In this document: piece after piece, positions 4,439-40,958 of the stretch
Layout of the letters: every line of letters begins with the position of its first letter
Numbering within the stretch: the stretch's first letter is position 1
Notes under the pieces: generated by a model
What the model was told of the DNA's origin: nothing
The model's database searches: none
The model's input: the letters and a program-made list of their open reading frames with translations, nothing else
Translations under genes and position numbers: made by a program
IMG/VR virus record: IMGVR_UViG_3300033068_001916
Length of the DNA stretch: 46,875 bases
From: a virus
Taxonomy: Duplodnaviria > Heunggongvirae > Uroviricota > Caudoviricetes
Strand: one strand, 5' to 3'

Positions 4439-5127
4439 TAAATTATCCAATAGTATTAACAAATATGAATAGACTTTCCACGTGTAAAAAAATGGTGGAG
4501 GATCTTTTTAAGCTTAATGGAAATAGCAGAATTAGTATAATAGATAATGCTTCGACATATCCGCCATTGCTCGATTGGTATCGTGAGATTGAAAGTGATG
4601 TTAATATTATAAGGAATCAAGTAAATGAAGGTCCATGGGCATTTTTCTATGGTGGAACTTTTTCTAGTATAGATGATGAAATATATGTATATTCTGATGC
4701 TGATCTTGAGCTGAATCCAAATATGCCATATAATTGGCAGGAGATAATGCTAGATTATATTAAAAAATATGACAGGAAAGCTTCTTTGGCTCTTAGAATA
4801 GACGATATACCAGATTCGTATGAATTTAAGGGAAATATACAGGATCATCAGAGTGTATGCTGGTATGACAGTGGTGAAGAGAATGTTTACAGAGCTATAA
4901 CCGATATGACATTCAGTATGGATATAAAATCAAAGGGTCATAGATATGATAGTGTTAGATTGGGTGGAGATTTTATGTGTAGACATATACCATGGTACAT
5001 AGATTTTAGTAATGTATCAGAAGAGGAAGAATATTATCTTAAAAATATAAATAGAGGGTACGATCAAGCAATGTATACATCTCTCCATTATGATAAATTA
5101 GTGCAAATTACCAATAAGTTAAAATAA
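4435..5127 (+). CDS. GT-A fold (family 2-like) glycosyltransferase
   Basis: IIDNASTYPPLLDWY and YVYSDAD (DxD) motifs. Confidence 0.7.
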   Translation: MINYPIVLTNMNRLSTCKKMVEDLFKLNGNSRISIIDNASTYPPLLDWYREIESDVNIIRNQVNEGPWAFFYGGTFSSIDDEIYVYSDADLELNPNMPYNWQEIMLDYIKKYDRKASLALRIDDIPDSYEFKGNIQDHQSVCWYDSGEENVYRAITDMTFSMDIKSKGHRYDSVRLGGDFMCRHIPWYIDFSNVSEEEEYYLKNINRGYDQAMYTSLHYDKLVQITNKLK

Positions 5128-13968: not shown

Positions 13969-14772
13969 ATGAAAAATCAAAAAATTATAAAGATCTGTAA
14001 AGAAAAGTTTATATATTTAAACTATTCACCTAGAACAAGAGATAATTATATATCTCACATAAAACATTTTTTAGAAAGCTTAGAGGATAAACAGATCGTA
14101 CATTGTAATTCTTCTGATTTTCAATCATATTTGGATAATTACGACTTTACATCAGTCTCTCAACAAAACCAAATTATTAACTCTATTAGATTCTTATACA
14201 AAGAAGTATTGAATAAAAAGTATGATAAAGTTTCCTTTAGGAGGCCTAGATCCGAAAAGAAATTACCTAAAGTAATAGATGGTAATTTTATTAAAAAACA
14301 ATTAGGTAGTATTAAAAATCTAAAACATAAAGCGATACTCACCTTAACATATTCAGTCGGATTAAGAGTCTCCGAAATAGTAAATCTAAAAATTATAGAT
14401 ATTGATTCTAAAAGAATGTTAATTCATATAAAAAATGCTAAAGGTCGAAAAGATAGAATTGTACCTTTATCTCAAATTGTTTTAGAACTATTAAGAGAAT
14501 ATTTCAAAGAATATAAACCAAAAGAATTCTTATTCAATGGTCAAAACTCCCTACAATACTCAGTAGGGAGCTGTCAAAAGATTTACAAAAAGTATATCGA
14601 TAATAAATCATCTATACACACTTTAAGGCATTCCTCATTCACAAATTTATTAGAATCGGGGACAGATTTAAGAATAATACAGAAGATTGCGGGACATTCG
14701 AGTTCAAAAACAACAGAAATTTATACTCACGTTTCTAACAACCTTTTATCCAGGGTTAAATTACCAATATAA
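13969..14772 (+). CDS. Tyrosine recombinase/integrase, compact Xer-like, putative cassette integrase
   Basis: Intact catalytic set: GLRVSE, AKGRKDR, HTLRH, AGH, EIY; N-terminal SAM-like region YSPRTRDNY; no IntI insertion. Confidence 0.95.
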   Translation: MKNQKIIKICKEKFIYLNYSPRTRDNYISHIKHFLESLEDKQIVHCNSSDFQSYLDNYDFTSVSQQNQIINSIRFLYKEVLNKKYDKVSFRRPRSEKKLPKVIDGNFIKKQLGSIKNLKHKAILTLTYSVGLRVSEIVNLKIIDIDSKRMLIHIKNAKGRKDRIVPLSQIVLELLREYFKEYKPKEFLFNGQNSLQYSVGSCQKIYKKYIDNKSSIHTLRHSSFTNLLESGTDLRIIQKIAGHSSSKTTEIYTHVSNNLLSRVKLPI

Positions 14773-17534: not shown

Positions 17535-18002
17535 ATGAATAAGGATCTGGCAGAAGCTGAGGAGAGAGCTCTAAATTACATAAGATCAACTAAGGAATAT
17601 TCAGAAATGAATTTCCAGGATAATAATAGTAAAATATGGGTGGCACACAATTCTTTGATTGAAGCTGCCAAAATATATGTTATTGACAATTATAAATTGA
17701 TTGACGATTATTCTGGACTCGATTTAATATTAAGAAGCGGAGCAACCGGTGATAGATTCTATTTTGGACCAAAAAGATCGAGGGAGGTTTCAAGATCTGG
17801 CATGTTGACAAACATATTAAAGGATCTAGATTCTAGAACTATAACGATAGAGACATTTGATGATGCAATCTATGATTGGTCGGACGGAGATTTTTCTGTT
17901 GTCTTTAATGGGGTTTCCTATAATTGGATAGACAGCGATTCAGTTATAAACATAGCATCATACATAGAAAAAAAATTAGAAGAAAATGAAATACAATATT
18001 GA
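17535..18002 (+). CDS. Hypothetical protein
   Basis: 155 aa ORF. Confidence 0.7.
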   Translation: MNKDLAEAEERALNYIRSTKEYSEMNFQDNNSKIWVAHNSLIEAAKIYVIDNYKLIDDYSGLDLILRSGATGDRFYFGPKRSREVSRSGMLTNILKDLDSRTITIETFDDAIYDWSDGDFSVVFNGVSYNWIDSDSVINIASYIEKKLEENEIQY

Positions 18003-19104
18003 AACAATAAATGAATATGTAGCAAAGGGATTGATCGATAAATGCGAGCATAAGGAGCTTCCAATAGCTATTTATAAATATTCACGTAATTGTCAATTCG
18101 AATGGAATTGGGACGATGTAACGAAAAATATGAGAGGAACTGTTCTTGATGATGATGGTAATCTGATTGCCCGTACATTTCCTAAGTTCTTCAATATTGA
18201 TGAATCTAATGTACCTAATCTTAATTTTGAGGTTTTTGAAAAGCTTGACGGATCTCTTGGCATATTATTTAATTATGAAGGGGAATGGCATCTGGCAACA
18301 CAGGGATCATTCTATTCAGATGTTGCTATCTACGCCAAAGAAATATTGAAAAGAAATGAAACGTATAAGGAAGTTTTTTCTGAGAAATTTACTTTTCTTT
18401 TTGAGATCATCTACCCAAAGAATAGAATAGTTTGTTCCTATGGAGATGATGAGAAATTAGTTATGCTGGCTGCTTTTAATACAAATACAGGCAGAGAAGT
18501 TCCTTATCATGAATTAATTGATGTTGCAAATAGAACTGGGTTTGAATGCGCTAAAAGATATGATGGAATAAAAGATCTCAAGAAGATAAAATCCCTAATA
18601 GGAGATAATCAGGAAGGCTTTGTTATAAGATTTTCCGACGGAACAAGGATTAAAGCCAAGGGTGAGGAGTATGTTAGACTCCATGGGGTTCTAACATCAT
18701 TCTCCAATCTTGATATCTGGAGATGTTTAAAGGAGGGAACTGATTATAGATCTCTGATGGTTGATATACCCGATGAATATGACGCCTGGGTTACCAATGT
18801 TGAGGAGGATCTTCAATCCAATTTCAATTTTATAGATGCAACAATAAATGCTGAATATAAATTGATAGCAAAGAAGATCAAGAGTCAAATTCCAACAGAG
18901 GAGGAAAGATTAGACAGAAACTCTCCTGTACTTAAGGCATACAACAAGGAATTTTTTGAACTTGTAGAAGGCCATAGATTAGCTGGATATCTATTAGATC
19001 GTCATAGAAATAAAGACTATTCAGGATCGATATGGAATCAAATAAGACCTGAATATGAAAAACCATTTTGGACAGATTACTCAATGAAAAGAAACGAATT
19101 ATGA
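17986..19104 (+). CDS. RNA ligase, T4 Rnl1-like
   Basis: MRGTVLD...ARTFPKFFN, motif I EKLDGSL, FLFEII, QEGFVI, RIKAKGEEY. Confidence 0.85.
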   Translation: MKYNIETINEYVAKGLIDKCEHKELPIAIYKYSRNCQFEWNWDDVTKNMRGTVLDDDGNLIARTFPKFFNIDESNVPNLNFEVFEKLDGSLGILFNYEGEWHLATQGSFYSDVAIYAKEILKRNETYKEVFSEKFTFLFEIIYPKNRIVCSYGDDEKLVMLAAFNTNTGREVPYHELIDVANRTGFECAKRYDGIKDLKKIKSLIGDNQEGFVIRFSDGTRIKAKGEEYVRLHGVLTSFSNLDIWRCLKEGTDYRSLMVDIPDEYDAWVTNVEEDLQSNFNFIDATINAEYKLIAKKIKSQIPTEEERLDRNSPVLKAYNKEFFELVEGHRLAGYLLDRHRNKDYSGSIWNQIRPEYEKPFWTDYSMKRNEL

Positions 19105-20020: not shown

Positions 20021-20662
20021 ATGAAAATAATATTGCAAGGACACCAGAAGATATTTTTTACTAGTGATACCCACTACAATCACAGCAACATATGCAGCGC
20101 TACGTCAAATTGGCCAGAGGGTAGAGGAACTAGAAAATTCAATTCATTAAACGAAATGAATGATAGATTAGTATATGAGATTAATTCAGCTGTTGGAACT
20201 GATGATATATTGATACATTTGGGTGATTGGAGCTTTGGCGGAATAGAATCAATATCTGAATTTAGAAATCGAATTAATTGTAAAAATGTACATTTATTCC
20301 TGGGTAACCACGATCACCATATAGCTAGAAATAAAGAGGATGTAAGGGATCTTTTTGCCAGTGTCAATAAACTTGAAACTATCGAACTAAGAGTCCCACA
20401 AGGAAAGGAAACTAAGAAATATACATTTGAATGTTGTCATTTTCCAATAGCTAGCTGGGATGGATTAGGTAAGGGATATCAGCATCTTCATGGTCATGTT
20501 CATTTACCTGGGCATTTAAAAATACACAAAGGGAGGGCAATGGATGTTGGTGTAGATGGTAACAACTACAAGCCATATTCATTGAATGAAATACTTAAGG
20601 CATTAGAGGGAAGACCTAAAATGCACTTAACATTACCAAAGGATCACCATACAGAAGAGTAA
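20021..20662 (+). CDS. Calcineurin-like metallophosphoesterase
   Basis: SDTH, HLGD, GNHD and HGHVH motifs. Confidence 0.9.
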   Translation: MKIILQGHQKIFFTSDTHYNHSNICSATSNWPEGRGTRKFNSLNEMNDRLVYEINSAVGTDDILIHLGDWSFGGIESISEFRNRINCKNVHLFLGNHDHHIARNKEDVRDLFASVNKLETIELRVPQGKETKKYTFECCHFPIASWDGLGKGYQHLHGHVHLPGHLKIHKGRAMDVGVDGNNYKPYSLNEILKALEGRPKMHLTLPKDHHTEE

Positions 20663-20663
20663 A

Positions 20664-20969
20664 ATGAAGGAAATTAATATAGACGGAAGAGTACTTAAGT
20701 ACCAATTAAAAGGTGACTGTAGTGAGCATGATTGTTGGGAATGGACAGAGTTCTATGAAGGAACAGAAATCATTTATAAAACAGTAAGATCTGGATTTTT
20801 TGATTTTTTTGGAACCCGTGTTCAAGTTGAGGTACCAAAATTTATATTTAGAATTAATTGGTCATGCGACGACGATAGCATAACCAAGGGGGAGTGGAGA
20901 GAAAGAATACTTAAAGAATTAGATCTTCTTAACAGAAGAGAGGAATTAGAAAAGGGTGAATTGATATGA
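20664..20969 (+). CDS. Hypothetical protein
   Basis: 101 aa ORF. Confidence 0.65.
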   Translation: MKEINIDGRVLKYQLKGDCSEHDCWEWTEFYEGTEIIYKTVRSGFFDFFGTRVQVEVPKFIFRINWSCDDDSITKGEWRERILKELDLLNRREELEKGELI

Positions 20970-22304
20970 AAACTTTATATCTATTGAGAGGACTGCATGG
21001 ACTTCCGATATGTAATTAAAAAATAATTATGTATACTAGAAAATGTCCATCTTGTTCAGTTGATCTAATATATCACAATATTGTCTCGTACAAAAATGCA
21101 ACAAAACGAGATAGTATGTGTAGATCATGTTCATCCAAGATAAGAAGCCAAAAATATCCAAGTTTAGCTATTGAAAAAATAAACGATGAAATCAGAAACG
21201 GAGAAAGAAAAAGTGGATTTTTTGGTAGAAACCATACTGATTCAACCATTGAGAAATTGAAAAAAGCGGACAAGGTATATACAAAAAAAGAAGAATTTAG
21301 AAAAAATATCTCTAATCTATCTGCGGGCGAAAAAAATGGTATGTTTGGAAAAAGCTTCTATGATGTGTGGGTCGAAAAGTATGGAATTAGCGTAGCTGAC
21401 GAAAAGCTTTCAGTGATGAAAGAAAAAATTTCCAAAAAAACTACAGGAAGTAATAATCCGATGTATGGTACAATAACTCCAGAGGGCAGTGGCAATGGGT
21501 GGTCTGGATGGTATAATGGATGGTATTTTAGAAGTATACTCGAATTATCATATATGATTAACGTTATAGAAAGATTTGGACTTGAATGGGAAGGGGGGGA
21601 AAAGAGAGAATATAGAATAAAATATATTGATAGTAGGTCTATAGAAAGAACATACACCCCAGATTTTATCATATCCGGAAAGTATATGATTGAAATGAAA
21701 CCGAAAAAATTATGGGGACAAATCGACGTACAATTGAAGGCTGCTGCAGCTAAAGAATTTTGCGAATCCAATTCAATGATCTATAAAATGACATATTGTA
21801 CTAAAATAGACAATCAAAAAATAAAAGAATTACTAGAAGCCGGCGAATTGATATTTATAGAAAAATACAAAAACAAATATGATGAAAGATATAACAAATA
21901 AAAAAGCCCCCGATAAGATACTTTATCTATTAAGGGGGCTTCCGTAACTAGGAGCTGGTAAGAGCACATTAGCTAAAAATATTGGTGGGGTTCACTATGA
22001 GGCAGACCAGTATTTTGAGAAATATGCTGATGTTCATTTCGATGGATATCAGCTTCAGAATTCCCATGATTATTGTAGAGAGAACGTAATTGGTGCCATG
22101 GAGTTGGGAGAGCCTAGCATTATAGTCTCTAATACTCTAACTAAAAAAAATGAGGTTGATGAGTATGTGGCATTAGGTGAAAAATACGGGTACCGTGTTT
22201 TTTCACTGGTTGTTGAAAATCGCCACGGTGGGAAAAACATACATGAAGTCGGAGAGAAAACTCTTGCTAAAATGAAAAATAGATTTGATTTAAAATTGAT
22301 ATAA
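20966..22304 (+). pseudogene. P-loop (AAA_33/polynucleotide kinase-like) gene interrupted by an endonuclease element
   Basis: 5' piece MKTLYLLRGL at 20966; body GAGKSTLAK...SNT...VENRHGGKNIH...RFDLKLI at 21951-22304; second N-terminal copy with in-frame TAA at 21945. Functional status unknown. Confidence 0.75.
21029..21901 (+). CDS. Homing-endonuclease-like protein (Zn finger, NUMOD3-like repeats, TnsA-like PD-(D/E)xK domain)
   Basis: CPSC...CRSC; GFFGRNHTDST, NGMFGK, NPMYG; FRSILE...YTPDF...IEMKP. Confidence 0.8.
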   Translation: MYTRKCPSCSVDLIYHNIVSYKNATKRDSMCRSCSSKIRSQKYPSLAIEKINDEIRNGERKSGFFGRNHTDSTIEKLKKADKVYTKKEEFRKNISNLSAGEKNGMFGKSFYDVWVEKYGISVADEKLSVMKEKISKKTTGSNNPMYGTITPEGSGNGWSGWYNGWYFRSILELSYMINVIERFGLEWEGGEKREYRIKYIDSRSIERTYTPDFIISGKYMIEMKPKKLWGQIDVQLKAAAAKEFCESNSMIYKMTYCTKIDNQKIKELLEAGELIFIEKYKNKYDERYNK

Positions 22305-22810
22305 TGGGATACAGAAACTATATTAACAAACTTCCAAGGGTCATTTATGAAGAGTTCAAGGATTTAAGTGTAAGCGAGATAGAGGAAAAATATGGAGAAG
22401 ATTTCTATATTGGAAAGGAGCAGGGTCTAACTGAGCTACATTGTCTTGGTAAATATTGTGATTTTGATATAGAACCTCTAATCAGCAGATTTTTTAAAGA
22501 GGAGATGCCATGGGAATGTGATATGGAATTTTCATTGGGCTCCAAGGAATTATTGGAAAGAATAATAGAACATTACAGGGAATATGTTTATGACTTCTAT
22601 ACGGAATTAGCTGAAAAGTCACCAGAAAAACAAAAGGAGCATGCATCATATATGGCAAGGGAGTGGAGAAAAGAATATCCGCCATATTCTTTGAATGATG
22701 ATAGTGAGATGGTTACTAGTTGGAAATATGAATATGCCATCTTTGAACTTGTTAGAATATACAGGGAATTTGATTGGGAGAATGACGTATTAATCTATAG
22801 TGGATCGTAA
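22304..22810 (+). CDS. Hypothetical protein
   Basis: 168 aa ORF. Confidence 0.7.
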   Translation: MGYRNYINKLPRVIYEEFKDLSVSEIEEKYGEDFYIGKEQGLTELHCLGKYCDFDIEPLISRFFKEEMPWECDMEFSLGSKELLERIIEHYREYVYDFYTELAEKSPEKQKEHASYMAREWRKEYPPYSLNDDSEMVTSWKYEYAIFELVRIYREFDWENDVLIYSGS

Positions 22811-23646: not shown

Positions 23647-23859
23647 ATGCTTAAATTTAAAAAATTTCTTATATTCACCATAACTTGGATATCAAGTAAT
23701 TTATCAATACCTTTTTGGGTTGTTGGTCACGTTCATCTAAGTGTCAACATATATGAGGATATACACGAGATATTAGCATCATTAGGAATGAATATATTGG
23801 TTGGTGTTGGATTTTTAATAGAATGGAATAAACATAAAAAAGAAGAAAATGAGCTATAA
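23647..23859 (+). CDS. Small membrane protein
   Basis: Two hydrophobic segments. Confidence 0.55.
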   Translation: MLKFKKFLIFTITWISSNLSIPFWVVGHVHLSVNIYEDIHEILASLGMNILVGVGFLIEWNKHKKEENEL

Positions 23860-24259
23860 CCTATTTTTAGACGATATAAGACATCCTTATGATTGCATAA
23901 GATATATGCCATCTCCTGGAATATATTCAAAATACGACTGGAAAACGGTCCGAAATCACGACGAATTCATTTCGTTCATCACGGAGAATGGTCTTCCTGA
24001 TCTAATCTCATTCGATCACGATCTGGCGGACGAACATTACAATCCTGACATGTATAACGGTAAGGAGATTTACAACAAGCACTATGCTGAATTCAAAGAG
24101 AAGACCGGTATGGATTGTGCAAAATGGTTAGTTGACTATTGCATAGACAACAAAAAAGAATTACCAGATTATGTGGTTCATTCGATGAACCCTGCTGGAG
24201 GCGAGAATATAAAATTACTATTAGATCAATTTAAAGAATTTCAACATAAAAATAAATAA
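23849..24259 (+). CDS. Receiver-like domain protein (cyclic-phosphate-processing REC family)
   Basis: LFLDDIR, ISFDHDL, TGMDCAKWL, HSMNPAG. Confidence 0.75.
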   Translation: MSYNLFLDDIRHPYDCIRYMPSPGIYSKYDWKTVRNHDEFISFITENGLPDLISFDHDLADEHYNPDMYNGKEIYNKHYAEFKEKTGMDCAKWLVDYCIDNKKELPDYVVHSMNPAGGENIKLLLDQFKEFQHKNK

Positions 24260-39640: not shown

Positions 39641-39856
39641 ATGAAGGCAAAGATAACAAAAACTATGGCATTAGCCATTGAAGTAGGAATAGCAGAGCTA
39701 GAAAATAGCGGAATTTGGGAAGATGAATTGACGGGGAAAGAGAGAAAGAAAGTTTATAAAGGTATTGAGGAGCTTGAAGCTCTTCTTATGAAAATTGAAA
39801 CAAAGAAAAAAGATAAAAAAGATGGAAAGAAAACTAGCGACAATCAGGAAGATTAG
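39641..39856 (+). CDS. Hypothetical protein
   Basis: 71 aa ORF. Confidence 0.55.
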   Translation: MKAKITKTMALAIEVGIAELENSGIWEDELTGKERKKVYKGIEELEALLMKIETKKKDKKDGKKTSDNQED

Positions 39857-40958
39857 CGATCTCCAGCCTATCGAGGGAGCGGATCTTATAGAATTGGCAA
39901 TCGTCGATGGATGGAAGGTAGTAGTTGGTAAGGAGGTTGGACACAAGATAGGTGACTTTGTCATCTATTGTGAAGTGGATTCATTCCTTCCAATCAGGGA
40001 AGAATTTGAATTCCTTAGAAAGAGCTCATATAGAAAAATGGTTGATCAGGAGGGATTCCGTCTTAGAACAATAAAACTTAGAGGACAAGTTTCTCAGGGT
40101 CTTATCATTCCACTATCGATTCTTGAGGGTGAGGAAGATGACGAAAAACTTGGATATCTACAAACACCGGAAGGTCCAGTTTATCAATTAGGACCATATG
40201 ATGGTGCTCTAGTTATAGAGGAAGGTGCTGACGTTACAGTAATGCTTAATATCGTTAAATGGGATCCGCCAATTCCTGCTGAATTAGCAGGTGTTGCTAA
40301 GGGGAATTTCCCAAGTTTTATACCTAAGACCGACGAGGAGAGAATCCAAAATCTTGCAAAGAATTTTGAGAAGATGAAGGAACAAAAATATTACGTGACA
40401 GAGAAGCTGGATGGATCATCATCAACATTCTACGTTTATAATGGTGAGTTTGGAGTTTGCTCTAGGAATCTAGATTTGTGCCGTCCCGAGCCATTCGTGG
40501 AAGGTATGGTTATGTGTGAGGATGGGATAGAAAGACCTAAAAAGGAAAATACATTCTGGAAGGTTGCTAAAGAACTTAATATCGAGGAGAATATGCTTGA
40601 TATGGGAGGAAACTTTGCAATTCAAGGTGAAATTATAGGCGAGGGTATACAAGGTAATCCATATAGAATTAAAGGACAAACTCTTAGAGTTTATAATGTT
40701 TTTGATATTGATACACAAGAATACCTGGAACTTGAGGATTTTAAAATGAAAGTCAGAGCTCTTTGTTTGGAGACCGTTCCTATTATTGATGAAAACTTTG
40801 AACTCCCAGAAACAATAGATGAAATTCTAAAGTTCGCAGAAGGAAAATCGACACTAAACCAGACAGCGGAGAGAGAAGGCTACGTTATCAGAAGCTTAGA
40901 TAGAAAAACAAGCTTCAAAGCTATATCTAATAATTTTCTATTAAAGGAGAATGAGTAA
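39822..40958 (+). CDS. RNA ligase, Rnl2/DRB0094-like with N-terminal OB module
   Basis: RKLATIRKI...IEGADLIE, TEKLDGSS, QGEIIG, REGYV, FKAISNNFL. Confidence 0.85.
   Translation: MERKLATIRKISDLQPIEGADLIELAIVDGWKVVVGKEVGHKIGDFVIYCEVDSFLPIREEFEFLRKSSYRKMVDQEGFRLRTIKLRGQVSQGLIIPLSILEGEEDDEKLGYLQTPEGPVYQLGPYDGALVIEEGADVTVMLNIVKWDPPIPAELAGVAKGNFPSFIPKTDEERIQNLAKNFEKMKEQKYYVTEKLDGSSSTFYVYNGEFGVCSRNLDLCRPEPFVEGMVMCEDGIERPKKENTFWKVAKELNIEENMLDMGGNFAIQGEIIGEGIQGNPYRIKGQTLRVYNVFDIDTQEYLELEDFKMKVRALCLETVPIIDENFELPETIDEILKFAEGKSTLNQTAEREGYVIRSLDRKTSFKAISNNFLLKENE

Follow-up and report, generated by a model that had tools for sequence, protein, structure and literature searches.

A mobile homing-endonuclease cassette at the Walker A codons of a phage kinase gene, with a short gap probably skipped by a ribosomal stop-hop

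The DNA analyzed here is a stretch of 46,875 nucleotides (nt) from a virus of the Caudoviricetes (IMG/VR record IMGVR_UViG_3300033068_001916; hereafter the window), which carries a P-loop kinase gene interrupted at its Walker A codons. Analysis of the window and of related loci suggested that the interruption is a mobile homing-endonuclease cassette, and that the short gap left in the kinase coding sequence is probably skipped through a stop-hop by peptidyl-tRNA-Pro, giving a product that would read ...RGLP-GAGKS.... The cassette would consist of four parts: the endonuclease gene; a replacement kinase 5′ end, which provides a start codon and the first beta strand along with an 11-residue extension; an RNA hairpin; and the 6 nt TAA CTA, which separate the P-loop codons for Pro and Gly.

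All elements of the locus lie on the plus strand. The 5′ remnant of the resident kinase (MKTLYLLRGLHGLPICN-stop, 17 codons) occupies 20966-21019; its ATG overlaps the TGA of the preceding open reading frame (ORF) in the tetranucleotide ATGA, and its first 27 nt match exactly the start of an uninterrupted allele found in L002, a 434-kb IMG/VR phage contig (L002 positions 4968-4994). The free-standing endonuclease ORF (21029-21901, 290 amino acids) starts 10 nt beyond the remnant. The leader ORF (MMKDITNKKAPDKILYLLRGLP, 21879-21944, 22 codons), the replacement N-terminus supplied by the cassette, begins within the endonuclease 3′ end in a different frame, with two in-frame ATG codons at 21879 and 21882. 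Its extension beyond the normal MK(T/E)L(Y/F)LLRGLP start carries the 5′ arm of the RNA hairpin (21904-21941), in which AAGCCCCC (21904-21911) pairs with GGGGGCTT (21934-21941) as the outer stem, while the fold places an inner stem at 21916-21920 and 21924-21928. The 3′ arm of the hairpin corresponds to the R-G-L codons and abuts CCG (Pro, 21942-21944), the last leader codon and the proposed take-off codon. The coding gap TAACTA (21945-21950) follows, composed of the stop TAA (21945-21947) and the proposed landing triplet CTA (21948-21950). The kinase body then runs from the GAGKST Walker A core to its own stop (21951-22304, 117 codons plus TAA), opening with GGA GCT GGT AAG AGC (GAGKS) at 21951 and ending with the terminator at 22302-22304. 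An intact Walker A motif, GxxxxGK(S/T), is encoded in the window only if the gap is skipped, and deleting exactly TAACTA from the downstream copy yields RGLP-GAGKS, colinear with L002. In addition, a 9-nt direct repeat is present as a left copy, GGACTTCCG (20999-21007), and a right copy, GGGCTTCCG (21936-21944), and probably reflects how the insertion was joined or repaired. A base-for-base re-reading of the sequence found every element that a preliminary description of this DNA had listed (remnant, leader, TAACTA, hairpin, repeats, and in-frame GGA codons) in its place. That description had also held that an endonuclease splits the kinase at Walker A and that the second N-terminus is a recoded duplicate; both points are supported.

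Scanning of contigs beside endonuclease relatives revealed the same arrangement at 43 distinct kinase loci, with one further case, beyond the 43, in a contig of a metagenome-assembled genome (MAG). The shared order is leader ORF, hairpin, CCN, stop, 2-6 nt, GxGK(S/T), and open body. The leader ORF (20-56 codons) is in frame with the take-off codon in 43/43 loci and starts with ATG in 42, and the body is open over 116-287 codons where the contig includes all of it, forming two kinase subfamilies of ~120 and ~280 residues. The take-off codon always encodes Pro (CCG in 21 loci, CCT in 19, CCA in 3) and is directly followed by a stop in every locus (TGA 19, TAA 18, TAG 6), with C as the next base in 35 of the 43; termination at a stop with C in the next position is weak. 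The gap, counted with the stop, measures 6 nt in 30 loci, 5 nt in six, 7 nt in four, 8 nt in one, and 9 nt in two. The body frame is always set by GxGK, so that leader and body frames differ in 11/43. The last triplet of the gap is CCN in 18 loci, CTA in 17, TCA in two, and ACA in six; all three gaps of 8-9 nt end in CCN, and ACA is the triplet before the resume codon in the 5-nt gaps (TGA CA or TAA CA; L051, L056, L067, L074, L082, and L129). No start codon stands between the stop and GxGK at any of these loci, and no second lesion was found in any of the 43 bodies. The arrangement goes beyond chance because it recurs in 43 distinct loci and because the association of hairpin and gap is perfect. 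One regular-expression match, L022 (CCA TGA TGTT, without a hairpin, -5.8 kcal/mol), was set aside as a chance occurrence. A scan of genome contigs returned five MAG contigs, from Saprospirales, Bacteroidetes, Gammaproteobacteria, and Fimenecus bins, but the binning of phage contigs does not name the host.

A single mechanism, skipping of the gap by the ribosome, would account for every gap length. Decoding of the gap is an improbable alternative, in which readthrough would operate at gaps of 6 or 9 nt and a -1 or +1 frameshift at the Pro-stop pair would operate at gaps of 5, 7, or 8 nt. Any gap length would then add just 2-3 residues between P and G; for the window, whose 6-nt gap keeps the frame, RGLP-x-L-GAGKS would be expected. 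In view of the known fourth-base effects, a Pro-stop pair with C as the following base is moreover a leaky context. Such decoding would, however, require three different mechanisms at homologous sites, and in the contexts CCA-UAA-A and CCG-UGA-C a +1 or -1 shift could not rely on slippery re-pairing. The residues that it would insert (L, P, S, VT, EL, KS) are unconserved, whereas in 64/64 uninterrupted relatives with Pro the P stands directly before GxGK, with no insertion in the P-loop turn. Decoding would also leave the Pro-like bias of the last gap triplet unexplained. The preliminary description had offered readthrough as one of its options; since gap lengths of 5-9 nt are not all multiples of three (5, 7, or 8 nt in 11/43 relatives), it cannot be the general mechanism. 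A reassigned code fares no better: 11/43 loci change frame, all three stops are used, and TAA terminates both the endonuclease and the kinase ORFs in the window.

The hairpin is the second conserved part of the arrangement. In the 43 gap alleles, folding energies of the 48-nt segment that precedes the take-off codon range from -17 to -25 kcal/mol and average -20.5, compared with a mean of -3.9 kcal/mol at 15 uninterrupted P-G Walker sites in the same loci, and the hairpin 5′ arm lies within an N-terminal extension found only in gap alleles. The stem ends 0 nt from the take-off codon in 34 loci and 1 nt from it in nine. With stem pairs counted by script and registers taken from the minimum free energy (MFE) fold of each sequence, stem positions -2 to -8 are paired in 43/43. 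Compensatory changes occur at positions -1, -3, -4, and -7, most of which fall at synonymous sites in codons for Leu/Val, Gly, and Arg. Position -7, for example, has 22 U-A and 20 C-G pairs, position -3 has 34 C-G, seven G-C, one U-A, and one A-U pair, and in L289 a CGT Arg codon is matched by ACG in the 5′ arm. The window hairpin folds at -17.7 kcal/mol over the 48 nt before the take-off codon. For the window by itself, the fold of 112 nt surpasses shuffled sequences by a modest margin only (z -1.9); the case for the hairpin rests on the family.

To obtain a sample in which the endonuclease played no part in the choice of loci, viral contigs were searched with a kinase alignment and 72 distinct loci were classified. 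Sixty-seven are uninterrupted, with neither endonuclease nor hairpin; they comprise 64 with P directly before GxGK, no endonuclease, and an upstream MFE of 0 to -9.7, and three with A or S where P stands elsewhere. The remaining five have a gap, all with a hairpin (-19 to -24) and four with an endonuclease within 1.6 kb. The gap allele of L268 (1533-1972, CCT TAA CTA) has a leader, a hairpin, and an open body, with no endonuclease within 1.5 kb upstream.

Substitution rates place the bodies behind gaps under purifying selection and show that they diverged in step with the endonuclease. The median ratio of nonsynonymous to synonymous rates (dN/dS) among 32 such small bodies, all complete, is 0.21 (238 pairs with usable dS), and over the first 25 aligned codons after the gap it is 0.34. 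L005 (TAA CTA) and L007 (TAG CTA), both interrupted, show a body dN/dS of 0.15 at a dS of 1.7, with endonucleases 69% identical. Comparison of L172 (7-nt gap) with L197 (6-nt gap) gave a body dS of 0.94 with dN/dS 0.14 and an endonuclease dS of 1.08, and the endonucleases have in general diverged about as far as the adjoining bodies. Over such distances, a dead gene would have kept neither its open frame nor its constraint. We therefore regard as quite improbable, more so than decoding of the gap, the view that the cassette simply inactivates a dispensable kinase, with bodies intact because the invasions are recent and with hairpin and stop serving target immunity. It is true that an in-frame stop lies within the key motif of the enzyme and that the kinase is an accessory gene. 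Against this view, endonuclease and body have co-diverged to a dS of ~1 with body dN/dS at 0.08-0.3, the codons right after the gap are constrained, all 43 loci retain a leader in frame with the Pro codon (42 with ATG), the stem covaries at synonymous sites, no body has acquired a second lesion, and the body is open even in a gap allele without an endonuclease within 1.5 kb upstream. The simple pseudogene that the preliminary description had considered is thus at odds with a conserved device, a covarying stem, and bodies under purifying selection; among its four unranked options, the short ribosomal hop is the one that the comparative data favor.

Comparison of alleles with and without the element, which the preliminary description had proposed, was possible through L002. 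Its kinase is uninterrupted (128 codons, start MKTLYLLRGLPGSGKT) and has no endonuclease, hairpin, or N-terminal extension; the window body is 85% identical to it at the amino acid level, with a dN/dS of 0.09. The window body matches AAA_33 at 3.8e-5 (24.5 bits, under the 27-bit cut-off); for the intact L002 allele, the profiles found were phrog_2071 (8e-37) and phrog_505 (polynucleotide kinase, 1e-6). These matches suggest a small AAA_33 or polynucleotide-kinase-like P-loop kinase of the RNA-repair type.

The window stretch is present in sequencing runs of ~10 studies, and all records compared are assembled contigs. A 38-kb contig (X4, depth 109) is identical to the window across 20500-22600, and over 21930-22220 a contig from another wastewater study (X11) differs by two substitutions and by no indel. 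The same TAACTA bases stand in both; the gap is real and not a read error, a possibility that had been raised earlier. In a co-occurring strain, seen in run X8, the same remnant and endonuclease start lie behind a diverged upstream gene; between 20659 and 20756, ~20 substitutions and an indel pair, all within the ORF upstream of the remnant, precede the return to the window sequence, a pattern that suggests a recombination mosaic. A further X8 record matches 21010-21030 and 21894-21911, but 23 letters of other sequence separate the two segments and its flanks differ; it was judged an unrelated AT-rich match. The exact 20-nt junction pattern was not found in IMG/VR, and a degenerate version retrieved only the L005 and L007 contigs. 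Searches of 50,697 cultured-phage records gave no match, either by megablast with 20600-22400 or by tblastn with the endonuclease, and hence no cultured carrier.

These data also bear on a long-range join between GGA at 20999 and GGA at 21951, whether by splicing, a 950-nt hop, or DNA excision, which would produce MKTLYLLRGLH-GAGKS. Each GGA is in frame with its own ORF, the join would restore the GxxxxGKS pattern in frame, and GG(A/G)CTTCCG is repeated at both ends. We nevertheless consider such a join extremely improbable, the least likely of all the readings weighed here. An Rfam scan of 20500-22500 with E up to 10 gave only chance-level matches and no group I or II intron. Nor does the endonuclease fit an in-frame intein, being read from its own start to its own stop in a frame other than that of the kinase. 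No joined or excised form occurred among the contigs of the four runs compared across the locus, although this absence is weak evidence because all runs are contigs. Excision by recombination between the repeats, as suggested earlier, would in any case leave the stop in place. At other loci, resident N-terminus remnants end at varied points of the P-loop with no matching join: such remnants lie upstream of the endonuclease at 11 same-strand loci, 10 of them besides the window, and end after PG, PGS, PGAG, and the like. Finally, both orientations of the endonuclease are represented, upstream on the same strand in 16/43 loci and divergent in 27/43. In the divergent loci only the small gap interrupts the kinase transcript, which argues against the splicing proposed earlier, as the gap is kept where no endonuclease lies inside the transcript.

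Loss of the 5-9 nt could alternatively take place at the RNA level, through a polymerase jump with re-pairing of the 3′ end or through cutting and rejoining by phage RNA-repair enzymes. The hairpin abuts the skipped bases, matching take-off and landing triplets would suit realignment of an RNA 3′ end, and the window encodes ligase, kinase, and phosphoesterase close together, with RNA ligase genes at 17986-19104 and 39795-40958. Such a loss would, however, give no role to the in-frame stop, which comes in three types, directly follows Pro in 43/43 loci, and is mostly followed by C, and a kinase needed to repair its own mRNA before being made is a circular requirement. Neither bacteria nor phages are known to perform transcript jumping or micro-splicing of this kind. 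We hold RNA-level loss to be very improbable, somewhat less so than the long-range join.

For the favored stop-hop, the following steps are drawn from the comparative data and from published bypass mechanics. The displaced 17-codon remnant probably feeds ribosomes to the endonuclease start. Ribosomes would initiate at ATG 21879 or 21882, unwind the hairpin, and come to a halt in a slow termination context, where TAA-C stands in the A site while peptidyl-tRNA-Pro occupies CCG in the P site. A C-terminal Pro slows termination and peptide release, according to statements in PMC7246954 that cite Hayes 2002 and Pierson 2016. The hairpin would then re-form on the mRNA exiting the ribosome and pull the message forward. 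Because its 3′ arm occupies the 8-9 nt immediately before the P-site codon, several message bases would have to be drawn out of the ribosome for the stem to form again. Forward bypassing in gene 60 of phage T4 is driven by pairing of mRNA leaving the ribosome (10.1101/2024.12.09.627546), and an upstream hairpin refolding beside the shift site favors forward shifts, also on 70S ribosomes (PMC6321510). The tRNA-Pro anticodon, of UGG type, would re-pair with CUA 6 nt on, and decoding would resume at GGA to give a 139-residue kinase with the canonical GLPGAGKS loop. CUA and UCA are each one G.U away from pairing with the UGG anticodon, the G.U of CUA being in the middle, and the strong though not universal bias of the last triplet (CCN 18, CUA/UCA 19) fits re-pairing of peptidyl-tRNA-Pro. 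By analogy with T4 gene 60 and MobA, the insert most likely breaks the endonuclease target, uninterrupted CCN-GGN Walker A DNA, and would thereby spare the carrier genome.

Several observations weigh against the stop-hop or limit the support for it. The landing triplet of the window, CUA, is only near-cognate for tRNA-Pro; the ACA of the six 5-nt gaps is a poorer match still, so that re-pairing may be only part of the explanation and landing there may occur without it. No tRNA genes were found in the window, and there is thus no sign of a phage-encoded hopping tRNA. The case for the hop product is comparative, and the efficiency of the hop could be low; the sole certain RNA contig (X19) covers 21357-21508, inside the endonuclease gene. 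The 43 loci are phylogenetically related, and their count overstates their independence. Registers taken from each sequence's own fold favor pairing, yet shifting the register drops pairing from 0.88 to ~0.6. In principle, repeated recent homing into functional genes could keep bodies intact, but the co-divergence of endonuclease and body argues against it.

Analysis of the endonuclease ORF revealed a CxxC...CxxC zinc finger, NUMOD3 repeats (6e-7), a Tn7_TnsA-like_N match (1.5e-6), and a PD-(D/E)XK nuclease domain, with weak resemblance to T7 endonuclease I. Residues C6, C9, C31, C34, D212, E222, and K224 are invariant in 12 relatives, and endonuclease relatives show a dN/dS of 0.17-0.35. Such relatives are common in viral and metagenome contigs of uncultivated phages (40-50% identity, one 63%). 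The presence of the ORF at one conserved site is sporadic, the same gene in L002 being without the cassette. Its domain content and distribution identify the ORF, at the sequence level, as a free-standing homing endonuclease. In L013 (1107-2009) and L014 (2959-3861), as well as L015 and L016, an endonuclease relative follows a ~330-residue P-loop gene (...NMFLGHSDVGKTT...); in the first two, its ORF starts with MFLGHTD, a copy of the Walker A region of the P-loop gene, while L015 and L016 start otherwise. The endonuclease family may have invaded Walker A sites of other ATPases too. Intact P-loop kinase or ATPase genes lie directly downstream of endonuclease relatives in L009 (3788-4261), L011 (3803-4282), L010 (3831-4292), and L017 (3813-4352), with P-loops of the types G-P-P-A-S-G-K-S, G-Q-P-C-T-G-K-S, and G-P-P-G-C-G-K-S; there the start of the P-loop gene overlaps the endonuclease 3′ end, and no stop-containing gap is present.

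The kinase lies in an RNA-repair-like neighborhood, with an Rnl1-type RNA ligase (17986-19104), a metallophosphoesterase (20021-20662), and cREC_REC, a cyclic-phosphate-processing receiver domain (23849-24259); a second RNA ligase, with a PHA02142 OB fold, is encoded at 39795-40958. L002 has an RNA ligase, small ORFs, and a metallophosphoesterase in the same neighborhood. The two ORFs flanking the kinase in the window, 20664-20969 (101 amino acids) and 22304-22810 (168 amino acids), have no Pfam or PHROG match, and both are missing from the otherwise colinear L002. A tyrosine recombinase (13969-14772, Phage_integrase, 4e-33) is also encoded in what is apparently a very large phage of lytic type.

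For decades, programmed bypassing rested on T4 gene 60, yeast mitochondrial inserts, and a few Streptomyces phage sites. It is rather likely that the loci described here, from ~45 related phages, form a widespread family of natural stop-hop elements, each with a hairpin abutting Pro, a stop, and 2-6 nt, carried by a PD-(D/E)XK/NUMOD3 endonuclease that targets Walker A DNA; on that reading, they would be the first natural stop-hop and, after T4 gene 60, the second endonuclease-linked bypass cassette. A literature search found no published description of this cassette, and a 2022 survey calls the gene 60 cassette unique (10.1101/2022.08.31.505936). The family would provide, by the dozen, natural variants of a much simpler device that differ in gap length (5-9 nt), stop codon (all three), and landing triplet (several); with them, small reporters could directly test the exiting-mRNA hairpin, Pro-stop stalling, and anticodon re-pairing. 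It would also represent another route for a homing endonuclease into an intolerant coding site without an intron or intein, in which the 5′ end is re-supplied and a target-breaking insert is hidden behind a hop. For annotation, such kinase genes should not be labelled pseudogenes.

The closest known system is the T4 mobA / gene 39-gene 60 cassette, which joins a homing endonuclease to a translational bypass of 50 nt (Bonocora et al. 2011, cited by Manning and Atkins, bioRxiv 10.1101/2022.08.31.505936), and in which the gene 60 gap protects against MobA (10.1101/2022.08.31.505936). In both systems, a free-standing endonuclease travels with a non-coding insert at a conserved site within coding sequence, a stop follows the take-off codon, a stem-loop lies upstream, take-off and landing codons are matched or near-matched (though not at every locus here), and the insert is thought to shield the carrier from its own nuclease. 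L268, which keeps its gap without a nearby endonuclease, resembles the T4 relatives that lost mobA yet kept the bypass. The two differ in that the gap here is 5-9 nt rather than 50, with no stem-loop within it nor room for one, the take-off codon is Pro (CCN) rather than Gly (GGA), and the hairpin abuts the take-off codon, whereas that of T4 lies 9 nt upstream. The nuclease here is PD-(D/E)XK with NUMOD3, unlike the HNH enzyme MobA, and its target is a P-loop kinase rather than a topoisomerase. The present cassette moreover provides a whole new N-terminus, while that of T4 splits the protein into two subunits.

Stop-hops between matched codons on either side of a stop are functional in synthetic constructs, and no natural case was known in 2016 (PMC5009743). 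In the E. coli constructs of Weiss et al. 1987 and O'Connor et al. 1989, in the form summarised in PMC5009743, peptidyl-tRNA re-pairs with a matching codon past the stop and 9 nt yield one amino acid, as would occur in relatives of the CCG-TAA-CCA type. Those constructs, as that summary presents them, were artificial, worked at a low level, and lacked stimulators, whereas the site here is natural and conserved, with a covarying hairpin and gaps of 5-9 nt. In the large terminase gene of Streptomyces phage phiHau3, bypass sites of 7-10 nt have been proposed (PMC10732093). As here, short non-coding blocks stand in a conserved phage gene with RNA structure flanking them, and the argument is made from conserved junction residues; the trigger there, however, is a rare UUA sense codon with no link to a homing endonuclease, and three genes are known, against dozens here. 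MobE in nrdA of Aeh1 is likewise a free-standing homing endonuclease that splits a phage gene (10.1101/2022.08.31.505936, section 12). In that case, as in ours, the endonuclease sits within an ORF without an intron or intein and added terminal sequences rescue function, but nrdA yields two polypeptides that assemble, while in the window the upstream copy survives as a 17-residue relic and the downstream copy encodes the entire enzyme anew.

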